Of a stretch of 64,000 nt of DNA, positions 4,426 through 10,997 are shown piece after piece. Source of the stretch: Patescibacteria group bacterium (lineage in GTDB: Bacteria > Patescibacteriota > Doudnabacteria > UBA920 > VMFF01). Within the stretch, counting starts at the first letter, position 1; the number at the start of each line of letters is the position of its first letter. The position numbers were made by a program, and so were the translations under genes. The notes under the pieces are model-generated. The model ran no database searches and had not been told where the DNA came from. It was given only the letters and a program-made list of their open reading frames with translations. The stretch covers positions 10,658-74,657 of the forward strand of contig JBBTQQ010000008.1 of assembly GCA_038065615.1 (NCBI GenBank), in the 5' to 3' direction.

Positions 4426-6111
4426 ATGCAAAACGAAAACGAAGTCACATTATTCGCCAAAACCAATTTCCGAAACAAGCAGGTGCCTTTTGGTATCAAG
4501 AGAGAAGATCGTAGAAAGCACATGTATGTCATCGGTAAAACTGGCATGGGCAAAACAACGATGATGGAAAACATGATCATCCAAGACATTGTTAATGACA
4601 ATGGTCTTGCTTTTGTTGATCCGCACGGCGATTCAGTTGAGAAGATTTTAAACTATATACCAGCCAGAAGAATAAACGACGTGGTGTATTTTAACCCGTC
4701 AGACATGGAATTTCCAATTGCTTTTAACATTCTTGAATCAGTCGATCCAAGATACAAGCATTTAGTCGCATCAGGATTAATGGGAGTGTTTACAAAGATA
4801 TGGGCAAACCTTTGGTCTGCTCGTATGGAATATATTTTAAACAATGCTATCTTAGCTTTACTTGATTCACCAGGGAATACACTTCTTGGTATTTCAAGAA
4901 TGTTAATTGACAAAAAATATAGAAAGCGGATCGTTGATAACGTAAAGGATCCGGTTGTTAGATCTTTCTGGCAAGATGAGTTTGCTAACTGGAACGAGAA
5001 ATATAGAATGGAAGCAATTGCTCCAATCCAAAACAAAGTTGGACAGTTCCTTTCTTCAGGAATCATTAGAAATATTGTTGGTCAACCAAAATCAACCGTT
5101 GATTTAAGAGATTTAATGGATAACAAAAAGATTTTGTTAATGAACCTTTCAAAAGGACGTGTTGGTGAAGACAATTCAGCGCTTCTTGGCGCCATGATTA
5201 TTACCAAACTTCAATTAGCGGCTCTTTCTCGTGTTGATATCCCAGAAGAAGATCGTAATGACTTCTATCTATATGTAGATGAATTTCAAAACTTTGCAAC
5301 AGAATCATTTGCAACAATTCTTTCTGAAGCAAGAAAATACCGCCTTAATTTAATTATTGGTCACCAATACATTGGTCAGCTAGTTCAGGAAAACAACAAC
5401 ACAAAGGTTAGAGACGCTGTATTTGGAAACGTTGGAACAATCGTAACATTCAGAGTTGGTGCTGCTGATGCTGAATTCTTAGAAAAGGAGTTCATGCCAA
5501 TATTCACAGAAAACGATCTTGTAAATATTCCAAAACATACAGTTATATTAAAGTTAATGATAAACGGGGTTGCTTCAGATCCTTTTACTGCAGAAACACT
5601 TCCTCCTGGAACATATGAAAAAACAGATAATGGTGAAAAGATTATTCGTGTTTCTAGAGAAAGATATGCAAATCCAGTAACTGATGTTGAGGACAAGATA
5701 ACTAAATGGATGGGGCAAGAGTTCCATGAGCAGGCTGCGTTAATAGCTGGAAACCAAGTTTTGGAGGGTGAAGAACAATTGGCTCCTCAAGCACCTATAC
5801 AGCAAGAGGTTTCAGCTCAACCAGAGATGGTAGAAGCTCCAAAAGCCATGGTTATGCAACAAGCTGAGGCTATAGAAAAAAAAGAAACTCTTCCAAACCC
5901 TGAAAAGAAAAAGAAAAAGAAATCAGGTAATCCAAACAACAGGAGAGACGAGAATCCAATCTGGAATACAGTTGCTAAAATGACTGATCAAAAGATCAAA
6001 GAAACTGAAACCCCTAATGTCTTGTTAAAGACTCTAGAAACAGTTAAAGTGTCTGAGAGTCCAAAAAAAGTCCTTAAACCTGGAGAATCAGTAAAGCTTG
6101 ATGAAATCTAA
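4426..6111 (+). CDS. VirD4/TraG/TraD-family type IV coupling-protein-like ATPase with low-complexity K-rich C-terminal tail
   Basis: Walker A (IGKTGMGKTT), Walker B (YLYVDEFQNF) and the TrwB/TraD-like layout (NLIIGHQYIGQL). C-terminus KKKKKKSGNPNNRRDE. Confidence 0.65.
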   Translation: MQNENEVTLFAKTNFRNKQVPFGIKREDRRKHMYVIGKTGMGKTTMMENMIIQDIVNDNGLAFVDPHGDSVEKILNYIPARRINDVVYFNPSDMEFPIAFNILESVDPRYKHLVASGLMGVFTKIWANLWSARMEYILNNAILALLDSPGNTLLGISRMLIDKKYRKRIVDNVKDPVVRSFWQDEFANWNEKYRMEAIAPIQNKVGQFLSSGIIRNIVGQPKSTVDLRDLMDNKKILLMNLSKGRVGEDNSALLGAMIITKLQLAALSRVDIPEEDRNDFYLYVDEFQNFATESFATILSEARKYRLNLIIGHQYIGQLVQENNNTKVRDAVFGNVGTIVTFRVGAADAEFLEKEFMPIFTENDLVNIPKHTVILKLMINGVASDPFTAETLPPGTYEKTDNGEKIIRVSRERYANPVTDVEDKITKWMGQEFHEQAALIAGNQVLEGEEQLAPQAPIQQEVSAQPEMVEAPKAMVMQQAEAIEKKETLPNPEKKKKKKSGNPNNRRDENPIWNTVAKMTDQKIKETETPNVLLKTLETVKVSESPKKVLKPGESVKLDEI

Positions 6112-7174
6112 GAAGATTTTAAAACAAAAGAAAAAAGTATTAGTAGCGCTTTCAGGCGGAATTGACTCTGCGGTAAGCGCTGCTTTGTTGTTGCAACAAG
6201 GATATATTGTTGAAGCTGGGTTTATGAAAAATTGGAGTTCAACCGAAGGGCTATTACGAAATGAATGTCCTTGGCTTGATGACAGAAGAGAAGCTTTAAA
6301 GGTTGCTGCGTCTTTAAACATTCCATTGCATACTTTTGATTTTGAAAAACAATATCAAGAAAAAGTAATGCAGTATTTCTTTAAAGAATACAAAGCAGGC
6401 AGAACTCCAAACCCTGATGTCATGTGTAACAAAGAGATCAAGTTTAAGCTCCTCTATGACAAAGTAATCAACACGGGCTTTGATTACATTGCGACAGGAC
6501 ACTATGCTCAGATTAAAAACAACAAACTCATCAGATCAACAGATGAATTTAAGGATCAAACATACTTCATCTACAACCTTAAAAAAGAACAACTAAAACA
6601 TATTCTTTTCCCAATCGGAGACTTAAAGAAGACAAAAGTTCGACAACTTGCAAAAAAGATTCATCTTCCAAACGCAGACCGTAAAGAAAGTATGGGTCTT
6701 TGTTTTGTTGGAAAGATTCGTTTAGATCAGTTTCTTTCGCAGAAACTCAAACCAAAACAAGGAAACATAGTCGATACAAAAGGCAATGTTATTGGAACAC
6801 ACAAAGGCACTTCTTTCTACACATTAGGGCAAAGACAGGGGTTAGGTATAGGAGGAACAGGTGGCCCTTACTATATCGCAAAAAAAGACGTTAAAAAGAA
6901 TCTTTTGGTAGTTACCGAAGATCCACATGACAAGCTTTTAGAGTTTAAAGAGATCCATGTTTCAGAGATTAACTGGATTGATATACCAAAGAAATACCCG
7001 ATTGTTTGTAAAGGGCGTTTTAGACACCAACAAGCGCTTCAGGAGTTGAATCTTCACAAAGAAAAAACAGGGTACATTGTTAGGTTCAAAAAACCACAAT
7101 TCGCAATTGCTTCAGGACAAAGCCTTGTTTTGTATAAAGGAAAAGAGTGTTTAGGTGGGGGAGTGATTATCTAA
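6098..7174 (+). CDS. mnmA: tRNA-specific 2-thiouridylase MnmA
   Basis: PP-loop SGGIDS, conserved catalytic cysteines and full-length similarity to MnmA. Overlaps the upstream gene by 14 nt. Confidence 0.9.
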   Translation: MMKSKKILKQKKKVLVALSGGIDSAVSAALLLQQGYIVEAGFMKNWSSTEGLLRNECPWLDDRREALKVAASLNIPLHTFDFEKQYQEKVMQYFFKEYKAGRTPNPDVMCNKEIKFKLLYDKVINTGFDYIATGHYAQIKNNKLIRSTDEFKDQTYFIYNLKKEQLKHILFPIGDLKKTKVRQLAKKIHLPNADRKESMGLCFVGKIRLDQFLSQKLKPKQGNIVDTKGNVIGTHKGTSFYTLGQRQGLGIGGTGGPYYIAKKDVKKNLLVVTEDPHDKLLEFKEIHVSEINWIDIPKKYPIVCKGRFRHQQALQELNLHKEKTGYIVRFKKPQFAIASGQSLVLYKGKECLGGGVII

Positions 7175-7205
7175 CAATAACCGCGTCTAATAACTGTACA
7201 GCCCA

Positions 7206-7234
7206 TTGACTAATACCACCGAAAGTGGTATTTT
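7206..7234 (+). promoter_or_regulatory. Sigma-70-like promoter candidate (TTGACT-N17-TATTTT) flanked by inverted repeat TGACTAA/TTAGTCA
   Basis: TTGACT at 7206-7211, 17-nt spacer, TATTTT at 7229-7234. Inverted repeat arms at 7207-7213 and 7241-7247. Lies upstream of the GC-rich small ORF. Confidence 0.35.
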
Positions 7235-7284
7235 TTGATGTTAGTCAGTCATGCAGGAGGATCACCATTCCACCGAGGAAGACC

Positions 7285-7557
7285 ATGCGACAAATCGATT
7301 TGTGGGGCCTGCTTCATGAAGCTGCCATCGCTGACAGCCCTGCTGAGGCTCAAGAGTTCCGCGAGAAGTTCTTGAAAGCCATCAGCGCCCTGGATAGCTG
7401 GACCCAGTGCATCATGCTTGACCTGTACGACGAGGTGTTGCGTCGGTGTCCAGAGGAGCTTCCAAGGCAGATGATCTTCTACATGTACTGCGGCAGTAGC
7501 CGAGTTGGCACGACAGAGCATGGACTCGGCGTTCTTGAGCCCGAGGTGCTGCTCTAG
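7285..7557 (+). CDS. Hypothetical 90-aa protein encoded in a high-GC island (anomalous composition)
   Basis: ORF with GC-rich codons (CTG, GCC, CGC) in an island of about 57% GC within a roughly 35% GC context. GAGGAAG lies 3 nt before the ATG and AGGAGG lies 24 nt upstream. In-frame ATT/ATC are possible alternative starts at 7267/7261. The antisense ORF 7249-7641 looks like a by-product. Confidence 0.4.
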   Translation: MRQIDLWGLLHEAAIADSPAEAQEFREKFLKAISALDSWTQCIMLDLYDEVLRRCPEELPRQMIFYMYCGSSRVGTTEHGLGVLEPEVLL

Positions 7558-7603
7558 TTGGACAACGAGGCGTCCGTGTAGCGCTGTTCTCGCGACAACA
7601 AAA

Positions 7604-7635
7604 CAGGGGCGATCTCTTTGCTGAGACCGCCCCTG
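7604..7635 (-). terminator. GC-rich hairpin terminator (CAGGGGCG/CGCCCCTG); on minus strand followed by TTTTGTTGTC, directly 3' of hppA
   Basis: Perfect 8-bp GC stem, then a T-run on the minus strand. May also terminate the + strand small ORF. Confidence 0.6.
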
Positions 7636-7655
7636 TGTCACGTTTGGGTATATCT

Positions 7656-9644
7656 TTAGTGTTTAATGAACTTAACCATCAACAACGCGACAATGTTAAT
7701 AATTTTAATCATTGGGTTAATTGCAGGTCCTGCGGTATCTTTGTATGGATCACCAACAGTGTCTCCTGTAACTGCTGCTTGATGAGCAAAGGATTTCTTT
7801 CCACCATGATGACCTTCCTCAATGTATTTCTTTGCATTGTCCCATGCAGCACCACCGGTTGTCATGGATATACCAACAAACAAACCAGTGACTATGGAAC
7901 CAACAATCAAACCGCCAAGTGCTTTAGCACCAAGAGTTAATCCCACAACGATTGGAACAACTACTGGGATGAGGGCTGGAATAATCATTTCTTTAATCGC
8001 GGCTTTAGTTACGATATCAACAGCCTTTGTGTAGTCTGGTTTTGCTGTTCCTTCCATAATCCCTTTAATCTCTCTAAACTGTCTTCTAACTTCTTCTACA
8101 ACAGCATGTGCTGCTTTTCCAACAGCTTGCATTGCAATGGAAGCAAAGAGGTAAGGCAACAAACCTCCAATGAACAAACCAACTAAAACTTTTGGATCTG
8201 AAATATCAAAGCCAGTATTAATTCCTCTATTTGTTAATTCTTGTGAGAATGAAGCAAACAGGATGATCGCAGCAAGTCCAGCTGATGCGATTGCATAACC
8301 TTTTGTTACTGCTTTTGTTGTGTTTCCAACAGCATCTAAAGGATCAGTAATATCTCTTACTTCTTGAGGCATACCAGCCATTTCAGCAATACCACCAGCA
8401 TTGTCAGTTATTGGTCCAAACGCATCAATTGCAACAACAATTCCTGTCAGAGACAACATGCTCATGACAGCCAAAGCAACACCGTAAAGTCCTGCTTGAT
8501 TGTGTGACACCAAAATTGCAGCAACAATTGCTAACACAGGTAGCGCTGTTGATTGCATTGAAACAGCAAGACCTGTAATGATATTTGTTCCGTGTCCAGT
8601 TGTTGAAGCTTGCGCAATATCTCGCACAGGTTTAAAGCTTTTTGATGTGTAGTACTCTGTGATTAAAACAATAGCCGCGGTTACTACAAGACCCATTAAA
8701 GCAGAGGTGTAAAGCTGCCAGAAAGTAAACTGTGTTTGAGCTGCCATCATGCTTTGAGTAATAGGGTAGAAAGCAACCGCAGAAAGAAGTCCTGAAACAA
8801 TAAGGCCTTTGTAAAGCGCGCCCATAATACTTTTTTTAGAGCCAAGTCTAACAAAAAATGTTCCAATAATTGTTGTAATGATTGAAGCTGCACCTAGGAT
8901 TAAAGGATAGGTAATTGCTGCTTCGAAATCTTTGAAAGTTAAAGAACCAAGAAGCATAACTGCGATTGCTGAAACAACGTATGTTTCAAACAAATCTGCT
9001 GCCATACCCGCATCATCACCAACATTGTCACCAACATTGTCTGCAATGACTGCTGGGTTTCTTGGATCATCTTCTGGAATACCGCTTTCTAGTTTACCAA
9101 CTAAGTCAGCACCAACATCAGCACCTTTTGTAAAGATTCCACCACCGAGTCTTGCAAATACAGAAATTAAGGAAGCTCCGAAACCAAGACCAATTAAAGC
9201 GTTTAAGTCTTTGTTAAAAGCGTAGAATCCTGCGACAGAAAGAAGTCCAAGACCTACTACAAACAAACCTGTTACTGTTCCGCCTTGAAAAGCAACAGAA
9301 AGAGCATGTCCTAAACCTTTCCTTGCAGCCTCAGCTGTTCTGACATTTGCTCTAACAGCAACATTCATTCCAATGTAACCTGCTAGTGCTGAAGCAACTG
9401 CTCCAATCAAAAAACCGACGATTGTGCCGGTGCTAAAATGAAAGACCCACATTAAAATTGCTAAAACAAGCGCAACGCCTGCAACAGTCTTGTACTGTCT
9501 GTTTAAGTACGCGTTTGCCCCCTGTTGTATAGCTTGCGCTATTTCCCTCATTTTCTCATTACCTTGCTCTTTCTTCAAAACATTGAAGATGAGCGCTGTA
9601 CCGTAAATTAAAGAAAGCACAGCTGCTATGATCGGAAAGGTCAT
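7656..9644 (-). CDS. hppA: Membrane-bound proton/sodium-translocating pyrophosphatase (H+-PPase)
   Basis: 662-aa polytopic protein with the diagnostic DNVGDNVGD motif and HppA-like overall sequence. Confidence 0.9.
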
Positions 9645-9743: not shown

Positions 9744-9911
9744 TATTTACTTATGTCTTGATCTTTGAAAAATGATGGTAAAACCCCATATTCCAATGAG
9801 CAAGTGTATCAGGAGGATATATGCCGGTAGATCAAAGTATTCCTTGAAGGCAAACCCTAAAACACCGACTAAAATACCTCCAGTAGCACAAACTACAGCG
9901 TATAGTTTCAT
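9744..9911 (-). CDS. Small hydrophobic protein (55 aa), candidate
   Basis: ATG overlaps the stop of the upstream small ORF (TAATG coupling). Two predicted TM segments. Lies upstream of hppA on the same strand. Confidence 0.3.
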
Positions 9912-10099
9912 TATTTTTTAATTAGGTTATAGAAAGACTCAAGACGAGAATCTGTTCCACAATAGAAGATGCGTTCTGTTAGATTAACGCAATATTGCGG
10001 ATTTTTATGGATATAGTTGTACTTTGGCAGGAACCAGTATAGAAATACTGCTGCTGCAAAGAACAAACCATATAGCACAAACTTTATAATTGATAGCAT
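9911..10099 (-). CDS. Small hydrophobic protein (62 aa), candidate
   Basis: Internal Met of a longer spurious ORF. The longer form would overlap tRNA-Gln on the opposite strand, so the start must be at or below 10099. TM N-terminus, two Cys. Confidence 0.3.
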   Translation of the reverse strand: MLSIIKFVLYGLFFAAAVFLYWFLPKYNYIHKNPQYCVNLTERIFYCGTDSRLESFYNLIKK

Positions 10100-10170
10100 G
10101 ATATAAGTATATCTGATCTTGTAAAAAGTGCCAATTTCTGGTATGGTAGAGAAGATTTTTAAAGGAATAT

Positions 10171-10245
10171 TGGGGTGTAGCCAAGTGGTAAGGCATGGGA
10201 CTCTGAATCCCACATCCGTAGGTTCGATCCCTACCACCCCAGCCA
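10171..10245 (+). tRNA. tRNA-Gln (anticodon CUG)
   Basis: Cloverleaf with U1-A72, D-arm GCCAAGTGGTAAGGC, anticodon loop CUCUGAA, T-arm GTAGGTTCGATCCCTAC, discriminator G and encoded CCA. Close to E. coli tRNA-Gln. Confidence 0.85.
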
Positions 10246-10301
10246 AAATCAAATATTCTTTTAGATGGTTTTTCCATAAATTTAAATTATAAATTTTATA
10301 T

Positions 10302-10997
10302 ATGGCTGAATATAGAGACGAAGTTCCGTTTAACGATCTTGAGACTACCGGCAAACAAGGTAAGTATTTTGAGGCAAAAGAATTGGTCCAAGATCCTGAT
10401 TTGATAGTGAAGGAAGCAAGAACAAAGTGGGGTATGTTTGAAACAAAAGGAGTACATCCTTTAAATGATTTGGAGCGCATAAAGGAAGATCTCGCTATAG
10501 TCAAAGACAATTTTGCAGAATTTATTCCTGAAACAAATTTAGTTGTAGGGAAGAACCAAAAGGGAAAAGAAGTTGTATACATAGTTCAGCATAAAATACA
10601 TGGACTGGAATTAAAAGATGCTAAACCAGATGAGGAGACCATATCTCAACTAAGGATTTTTTTTGAAGCTGTTGTAGTGGCATATATTAAAAATTTGTAC
10701 TATCCTAAAAATTCTCAAGAACCTTCTTCGATTTTTCCGGACATTAAAGGATGGAATTTTATAGTAGGCAGAGATAATAAAATTGGTGGACAAGAAGGCC
10801 GTCTATATTTCGTAGATACGTACCCCGTAGAAGGTTCTACTGTCAGCTATTTTTTGGAAGAGTATATACCTAGTATTGTTAGACCAACTTTTCCTGAATG
10901 GTGTCATCCTTTGATCGACGAGTTTAGGTTAAAGGCTACTAAAAGGTTAGAAGAATATATAAAAGAGAAGGACGACCAAATTCCCAAAGTGATCTGA
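10302..10997 (+). CDS. Hypothetical protein (231 aa)
   Basis: Clean ORF, typical composition, no recognisable motifs. Confidence 0.55.
   Translation: MAEYRDEVPFNDLETTGKQGKYFEAKELVQDPDLIVKEARTKWGMFETKGVHPLNDLERIKEDLAIVKDNFAEFIPETNLVVGKNQKGKEVVYIVQHKIHGLELKDAKPDEETISQLRIFFEAVVVAYIKNLYYPKNSQEPSSIFPDIKGWNFIVGRDNKIGGQEGRLYFVDTYPVEGSTVSYFLEEYIPSIVRPTFPEWCHPLIDEFRLKATKRLEEYIKEKDDQIPKVI

Follow-up and report, generated by a model that had tools for sequence, protein, structure and literature searches.

The monocistronic hbs mRNA of Bacillus subtilis encodes a protein of ~90 amino acids (aa), carries a strong Shine-Dalgarno (SD) sequence near its 5' end, and combines base-pairing between its 5' and 3' untranslated regions (UTRs) with a terminal hairpin (PMC5737220). 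In this mRNA, the 5'/3'-UTR interaction together with ribosome-mediated protection couples stability to translation (PMC5737220). The locus described here is predicted to have a similar architecture and was found as a GC-rich island between mnmA and hppA in a 64-kb stretch of DNA (64,000 nucleotides of contig JBBTQQ010000008.1, referred to as the window) from a Candidatus Doudnabacteria (Patescibacteria) metagenome-assembled genome (MAG). The island contains a 90-codon open reading frame (ORF) on the plus strand at 7285-7557, with a TAG stop at 7555-7557, whose product is listed by NCBI as hypothetical protein AAB351_02840 (also its locus tag). Three other kinds of elements resemble parts of this locus. 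The 5' mRNA stabilisers of the STAB-SD (cryIIIA) type are SD-like 5'-UTR sequences at too great a distance from the start codon for initiation. A GC-rich island in an AT-rich genome is in most cases a structured RNA, and GC-rich intergenic noncoding RNA (ncRNA) candidates likewise appear as a GC spike between two genes. Lastly, horizontally acquired ORFans and genomic islets, as viewed under the amelioration model, combine atypical GC content and codon usage with orphan status and a break in synteny.

How does the locus compare with these systems? The HBsu protein is basic and binds DNA, whereas the ORF protein is an acidic orphan that is not homologous to it. The composition of hbs is normal; the predicted UTR helix of the ORF mRNA covers the ribosome-binding site (RBS) and is weak in the window copy, and the hbs-like features of this mRNA are predictions from sequence. 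The likeness to STAB-SD elements lies in an AGGAGGA motif, conserved in all eight orthologues, that stands beyond the initiating distance from the ATG and may be stabilising. The ORF differs from the GC-rich ncRNA candidates in being coding by codon periodicity and substitution pattern, with neither an Rfam match nor a conserved structure in its body. Unlike acquired ORFans, it has been inherited vertically over a divergence of more than one substitution per synonymous site and has not taken on host composition, and neither mobility signatures nor a donor were found for it. The island is probably best explained as the transcription unit of a genuine, clade-restricted small-protein gene that is vertically inherited. 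In practice, GC-spike screens in AT-rich genomes catch small-protein genes besides ncRNAs.

The island is a strong compositional outlier. The segment 7185-7640 has a GC content of 53.9%, compared to 36.6% for the whole window; a first-pass annotation of this DNA had recognized the GC-rich island but had set it at 57%. The ORF alone reaches 56.4% and the core (7300-7600) 56-58%. Among 450-nt windows (mean 0.366, standard deviation 0.028), the top one has 54.7% GC, which is 6.4 standard deviations above the mean. The runners-up, a tRNA cluster at 62.3 kb and a region at 32.8 kb, reach only 46%, so the initial impression that nothing else in the 64 kb has this composition was correct. The GC content at third codon positions (GC3) of the ORF is 0.69 as against 0.295±0.037 in 59 host ORFs (maximum 0.398), a difference of +10.6 standard deviations. 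In 40-nt windows, GC content climbs near 7245 and drops at ~7640. The GC-rich domain matches the extent of the predicted transcript (~7241 to 7636), and an AT-rich promoter/terminator module 30 nt upstream lies outside it and is unaffected. The idea that the island marks a replication terminus or dif site was rejected because GC skew merely tracks gene orientation.

The ORF, which translates exactly as first quoted, is a genuine protein-coding gene under purifying selection. Evidence for this comes from comparison with its relatives: the pairwise ratio of nonsynonymous to synonymous substitution rates (dN/dS) is 0.24-0.27; differences at the first, second, and third codon positions number 28/19/39, 25/22/44, and 32/23/52, in the order third > first > second; and eight orthologues keep the reading frame with its start codon as well as the motifs W-x-Q-C, D-x-Y-D-E, and G-T-T-E-H-G. 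The invariant residues are W39, Q41, C42, D46, Y48, D49, E50, L59, P60, Q62, and G75-T-T-E-H-G80. An antisense 130-aa ORF was considered and rejected. This frame is the in-register reverse complement of the gene and stays open only because TTA, CTA, and TCA are avoided on the sense strand. In L005 and L013 it is broken partway through the gene, and variation among orthologues would fall most heavily on its first codon position.

The protein is an orphan of ~90 aa, acidic and, according to structure models, mostly alpha-helical. Its isoelectric point (pI) is 4.6 in the window, and all eight orthologues are acidic (pI 4.2-5.0). Two AlphaFold (AF2) models, with predicted local distance difference test (pLDDT) scores of 63 and 67, contain the same three N-terminal helices (residues ~3-14, 19-34, and 38-54). 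The C-terminal third differs between them and is of low confidence: one model has a helix and then disorder, and the second places the invariant GTTEHG turn in a β-hairpin. An exhaustive hidden Markov model (HMMER) search of 1.84 billion representative proteins retrieved only the protein's own cluster, and no significant match was found in Pfam (DUF3504, E 0.09), PHROGs, NCBIfam, PADLOC, or a PDB profile search (FleN, E 0.7). Protein-pattern searches of IMG/VR and JGI metagenomes returned nothing. A role in defence or as a toxin-antitoxin module found no backing either: the sole PADLOC match had an E value of 0.039 and involved one member, and no partner ORF was conserved. The label "phage-like" given to the sequence at first could not be upheld, with PHROGs matches at E ≥0.12 at best, none in IMG/VR, no tblastn match among plasmids and phages (INPHARED), and zero Foldseek matches in BFVD at E ≤0.001. 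The possibility that the ORF is a fragment of a known gene had also been raised; profile searches revealed no relatives among the 1.84 billion representative proteins or in PDB. A remnant of the soluble pyrophosphatase gene ppa was rejected at an hhalign probability of 0.1%.

The ORF family comprises eight distinct members obtained from two homologue searches, with a mutual identity of 47-74%. They were drawn from NCBI MAGs and from ENA, JGI, and Logan assemblies, in which contigs of 53-102 kb cross both junctions of the unit; among named genomes, Candidatus Doudnabacteria bacterium Gr01-1014_77 is the nearest. Where a contig is long enough, the gene order is sigma-70 factor, DUF8128, TrwB/TraG-like ATPase, mnmA, ORF, and convergent hppA. 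All eight copies are GC-rich (54-60% GC, GC3 0.58-0.76). The ORF and mnmA trees give the same two groups and are broadly congruent, and synonymous divergence (dS) of the ORF is 1.2-1.6, compared to 0.8-1.9 for mnmA in the same genome pairs. The mnmA homologues themselves fall into two groups, with 84-90% identity within the ORF-bearing clade and 70-74% to the next relatives. From these comparisons, the ORF appears to be inherited vertically within one lineage of tiny Candidatus Doudnabacteria, to which it is restricted.

Transcription of the unit is predicted to be driven by a promoter inside the terminator region of the upstream gene. A promoter scan recovered the sigma-70-type promoter TTGACT-N17-TATTTT proposed in the first-pass annotation, at 7206-7234 (+), and added a TG extended -10: the -35 element TTGACT (7206-7211) is followed by a 17-nt spacer and the extended -10 TGgTATTTT (7226-7234), whose hexamer TATTTT occupies 7229-7234. 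It has 9/12 hexamer matches plus the TG in a consensus scan. The -35 and -10 are unvarying across the orthologues, with TTGACA in seven of eight; ATTGAC and GTGGTATTTTTT are invariant in all eight, in contrast to the variable stretch between the mnmA stop and the -35. The predicted transcription start lies near 7240-7243. At 7212-7238 (+), a terminator scan found a hairpin that resembles a terminator for mnmA and consists of AATACCAC-CGAAA-GTGGTATT with a T-run. The promoter spacer and the -10 overlap this hairpin; in other words, the promoter is nested inside it. Its stem (7212-7232) is invariant and its loop variable in the eight orthologues, and TTTTGATGTT comes next on the plus strand. As for the 7-bp inverted repeat first seen to bracket the promoter, TGACTAA/TTAGTCA, it occurs in the window, but the orthologues keep it only in part and not as a pair. 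The conserved inverted repeat is instead AATACCAC-N5-GTGGTATT (7212-7232) with the T-run after it.

The 5' UTR contains two SD-like sequences. The AGGAGGA at 7255-7261 (+), invariant in 8/8 orthologues, holds the AGGAGG box noted at first. It lies ~15 nt from the predicted 5' end, but it is not the SD of the ORF because it is 24 nt upstream of the ATG, which is beyond SD range; the proximal SD is GAGGAAG (7275-7281), within CGAGGAAG at 7274-7281 (+). Among the orthologues, non-triplet indels alter the spacing between AGGAGGA and the ATG by 18-31 nt, and the segment between them is therefore non-coding. The idea that AGGAGGA serves as the SD of an alternative start was rejected, as no start codon comes after it and the spacer lengths are non-triplet. 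By analogy with known elements, AGGAGGA may act as a 5' stabiliser or a standby ribosome site.

The proximal SD may also be the 5' arm of a long-range helix of the hbs or icaR type. In orthologues it reads CCCGGAGG or CCCGAGGG, and RNAalifold pairs it with a complementary, pyrimidine-rich 3'-UTR element just past the stop codon (TTCTCG at 7587-7592 (+) in the window, YUCUCGGGG in orthologues; the 3' UCUCGGGG element). The resulting 5'/3'-UTR duplex has a free energy of -12 to -20 kcal/mol in six of the eight orthologues and is weak in the window and L003. Paired cells make up 81% of this helix, as against ≤58% in slid controls, with strong pairing in 6/8 only. Five pairs show double (compensatory) changes, and there are eight double-change cells versus 0 in 500 shuffles. 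The G·U pairs of the helix suit the plus strand. In the window, the 3' UTR at 7558-7585 has an insertion of 20-30 nt with a small hairpin (GGAC-AACGAGGC-GTCC) that is missing from the other seven orthologues. This insertion may explain the weak duplex there.

At its downstream end, the unit has a GC-rich hairpin, ACAGGGGCGATCTC-TTTGCT-GAGACCGCCCCTGT (7603-7636), which the terminator scan recovered on the minus strand and which is predicted to serve the convergent ORF and hppA as a common terminator. On the minus strand (7636-7603) it has 14 pairs followed by TTTGTTGT, and it is the presence of TTTGTTGT after the stem that identifies it as the hppA terminator, as the earlier reading had it. On the plus strand it has no good U-tract; the ORF transcript is nevertheless predicted to end there. 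The hairpin is the only one of its kind in the window and is nearly invariant in orthologues. The promoter-in-terminator module, AGGAGGA, and the 3' hairpin with its flanks are each conserved more strongly than the ORF. With promoter, RBS, ORF, and terminator all kept in eight orthologues, and the hairpin also serving hppA, the view of the island as a self-contained expression unit holds.

Several further observations concern the hairpin. Its sequence is much better conserved than is usual for terminators. In L003 (9382-9413) and L010, G·U pairs preserve the stem of variant copies on the plus strand; in the window and most other copies, they do so on the minus strand. This pattern fits a hairpin that is used from both directions. 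The L005 hairpin (6294-6326) is a perfect 13-bp palindrome. Four short, independently assembled contigs (L001, end at 1023; L002, 1122; L003, 9426; L013, 1155) stop inside the hairpin or within 15 nt past it, and longer assemblies continue. These stops reflect either a drop in coverage or sequencing at the hairpin, or strain heterogeneity just beyond it.

The predicted transcript also has unusual physical properties. Its minimum free energy (MFE) is -152 kcal/mol, compared to -80±13.6 in host 400-nt windows. It has no A/U runs of ≥5, where host windows average 13.9 and never fall below 7, and its UpA observed/expected ratio is 0.42 versus 0.70 in host windows. The scarcity of A/U runs was further examined by resampling coding sequences for the same proteins with the family's own codon usage: the eight orthologues together contain two A/U runs of ≥5, in contrast to 8.0±2.4 in the resampled sequences (P = 0.005; the orthologues are not independent).

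Why has the unit stayed GC-rich? The family's codon usage is the reverse of that of the host. Its leucine codons are CTG (38), CTC (26), and CTT (22), with TTA at 0 of 101, compared to 36% TTA in the host; CGC prevails for arginine where the host uses AGA; and CTG, CTC, CGC, GCC, GAG, CAG, and AAG dominate overall. Fitch counts at third positions give 57 GC>AT and 33 AT>GC changes, whereas neutral decay to an equilibrium of 0.30-0.40 predicts 15-21 AT>GC of 90 (P = 4e-6 to 4e-3). In the ORF, parsimony bias is expected to undercount AT>GC changes, if anything; mnmA shows the opposite, a common-to-rare inflation. Because dS exceeds 1, the tree matches that of the host, and AT>GC fixations are many, the composition reads as maintained and not residual. 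It is likely that a fixation bias has kept the unit GC-rich over most of the tree, and that its composition is not the leftover of a recent transfer. Synonymous sites have changed more than once on average, and GC3 is still ~0.7 in a genome of GC3 ~0.3.

What the fixation bias acts on is more doubtful. One possibility, which we put forward tentatively and largely by analogy with hbs and STAB-SD, is that it acts on the mRNA and gives the message unusual stability and resistance to nucleases among AU-rich transcripts. In this model, the mRNA would start from the extended -10 promoter nested in the mnmA terminator, bear an SD-like stabiliser at its 5' end, be free of AU tracts, and end in the strong shared hairpin, and in most orthologues 5'/3'-UTR pairing would cover the RBS. 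Together, these features would keep the message for the small, acidic, helical protein stable and protected from nucleases. Should such a bias on the transcript be responsible, the locus would be a compact natural test case for mRNA composition in an AU-rich cell, with nuclease resistance, rare-codon translation, and 5'/3' pairing as candidate effects.

The other readings of the island account for its composition in different ways. Its outlying composition is what had suggested a recent horizontal acquisition, a selfish module, or an assembly chimera, and atypical compositions are routinely taken as recent transfer or contamination. All three are barely credible here. The unit is neither chimeric nor recent, since eight diverged orthologues occupy the same slot on independent long contigs: the NCBI, ENA, JGI, and Logan assemblies reproduce both junctions independently, relatives carry the ORF in the mnmA-hppA spacer with similar GC content, and the ORF and mnmA trees agree. 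A selfish module is further contradicted by the flanks, which show only chance-level short repeat matches and housekeeping neighbours, with no mobility genes, and by the lack of phage or plasmid relatives by sequence or fold. The ORF is instead a vertically inherited counterexample to the usual interpretation. A structured or dual-function RNA, on either strand, as the functional product, with the ORF secondary or incidental, is highly improbable. It would suit the usual identity of GC-rich islands in AT-rich genomes, the covarying 5'/3' helix, and the minus strand of 7175-7655, which folds with z = -4.6. However, that excess comes from the two terminal hairpins, the signal from the body is inconsistent, the RNAalifold covariation term is +1.99 and gives no net support, Rfam yields no match at gathering score and only terminator-like chance matches at E ≤10, and codon periodicity is clear, with dN/dS near 0.25.

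The main rival to a maintained composition is an ancient foreign gene that came into the ancestor of the clade from a very GC-rich source and is still ameliorating without selection for GC, so that purifying selection on the protein and limited time explain the GC that remains. This reading is unlikely but deserves serious weight. Composition is atypical at all three codon positions and in amino-acid content, as it would be for such a gene, dS near saturation is imprecise, and in the pair L004/L014 GC3 has fallen from the 0.75 of its sister L002. On the other hand, no donor or outside relative was found among the 1.84 billion representative proteins, the 33 AT>GC changes are about twice the host-like neutral expectation, and five of the eight orthologues retain a GC3 of 0.69-0.75 despite more than one substitution per synonymous site. 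An ameliorating gene would also not account for A/U runs that are fewer than codon usage explains or for GC domain boundaries that coincide with the predicted transcript ends. Could the segment be kept GC-rich by recombination and not by selection? Local GC-biased gene conversion at a hotspot of ~400 bp would agree with synonymous sites that are free to change and yet GC-rich, which suggests a compositional bias over site-specific constraint, and with the breaks of four short contigs at the hairpin. It is nonetheless very unlikely, because no known mechanism limits conversion to one transcription unit, the AT-rich promoter/terminator 30 nt away is unaffected, and the congruent ORF and mnmA trees show no sign of frequent exchange. 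The contig breaks are as well explained by sequencing drop-out at a GC-rich hairpin.

Several points weigh against parts of the favoured explanation, a clade-restricted gene with a maintained composition. The polarity counts come from parsimony near saturation, and a polarity test on singletons was discarded as it showed the same common-to-rare bias in mnmA. The youngest pair, L004/L014, has 8 GC>AT changes to 1 AT>GC and the lowest GC3 (0.59-0.63), and this sub-lineage, at least, is losing GC. The helix between the UTRs is weak in two copies: the window's own duplex has only -7.6 kcal/mol (z +1.1), and that of L003 is weak too. Without the terminal hairpins, the ORF body of four orthologues gave z values from +1.4 to -4.9 against dinucleotide shuffles, with no consistent direction. 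The low MFE and the few AU tracts largely restate the GC-richness. The promoter, the 5' end, and the stability of the mRNA are predictions from the DNA. Finally, the protein is linked to hppA by a single evolutionary event in a single clade, which hitch-hiking could explain.

That event can be reconstructed from sister lineages. In the window, mnmA (tRNA 2-thiouridine synthase; 6098-7174 (+), Pfam tRNA_Me_trans, E 3e-73) adjoins the unit on its left, as it does in every orthologue, and hppA, a membrane H+-translocating pyrophosphatase (H+-PPase), lies convergent to the ORF at 7656-9644 (-) (Pfam H_PPase, E 3.5e-268; also identified by synteny). Both flanks thus carry the names given to them at the outset. 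Four contigs of sister Doudnabacteria, from the group with 70-74% mnmA identity, have identical upstream synteny, with mnmA followed by ppa (6114-6632 in L015 and 6111-6614 in L016), and the ORF and hppA were seen in none of these four. Some of them have one or two unrelated genes between mnmA and ppa. The sister order is mnmA > ppa > mem56 > < orf59, where arrowheads give gene orientation. Upstream of hppA, the window has a 54-aa membrane ORF (9747-9911 (-)) that matches the 56-aa ORF of L016 (6622-6792 (+)) with 40% identity (BLASTP, E 7e-17) and marks the right-hand edge of the segment; its orientation is inverted relative to the sister lineage. Next to it, a 62-aa ORF (~9914-10099 (-)) matches the 59-aa ORF of L016 (6798-6977 (-)) with 51% identity (E 4e-25), and the two proteins share WFLPKYN..HKNP.YCVNL. 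Because both flanks are homologous, ppa appears to have been replaced in place by the ORF together with hppA, with inversion of the membrane ORF.

The locus therefore resembles known displacements of a soluble family-I pyrophosphatase (PPase) by a membrane H+-PPase, in that the mnmA-proximal slot holds ppa in the sisters and hppA in the clade. This likeness concerns the history of the locus and not the ORF itself. A swap of a soluble for a membrane H+-PPase in a lineage of the episymbiont type would represent a change in energy conservation, and the orphan ORF sits in the swapped segment together with hppA. The two genes are adjacent in every contig long enough to show both. The GC3 of hppA is host-like (0.26-0.29 in four orthologues).

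What might the protein do? Since the ORF and hppA fill the ppa slot, are convergent, share a hairpin, and are always adjacent, the protein might be a soluble partner or regulator tied to the membrane H+-PPase or to the handling of pyrophosphate, although this is a speculative and rather improbable assignment. To our knowledge, membrane PPases have no accessory subunit. Still less likely is the combined proposal that transcript selection persistently opposes amelioration in a reduced, AT-rich CPR genome, through either an ultra-stable mRNA or a rare-codon message, and that the protein is an accessory or regulator of the H+-PPase. In the rare-codon version, translation of the host's rarest codons would report tRNA supply or wobble modification. 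This idea of a rare-codon sensor arises from the adjacency of mnmA, the nearby tRNA-Gln(CUG), and the dominance of GAG, CAG, and AAG codons.

A few minor observations were made in the surrounding genes. Insertions seem to recur 3' of mnmA in Doudnabacteria: the mnmA-ppa gap varies in JGI contigs of P0015 and P0014, with an unannotated 163-aa ORF in one and a DsbB-DsbA pair in another. In the 8300-8330 region, hppA encodes GNTTKA rather than GNTTAA, which we take to be a mark of the K+-independent class of membrane PPases. A 223-aa ORF at 9911-10582 (-) overlaps tRNA-Gln(CUG) at 10171-10245 (+) and is probably spurious, as only its C-terminal 62 codons resemble a real conserved small gene. The TrwB/TraG-like ATPase gene is split into two ORFs (353 and 203 aa) in L006 and L007 (3166-4842 in both), which could reflect a frameshift, a pseudogene, or an assembly error. 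It is a single ORF of 558-561 aa in other assemblies, including L005 and the window (4426-6111), where its overlap with the TTG start of mnmA is 14 nt long.

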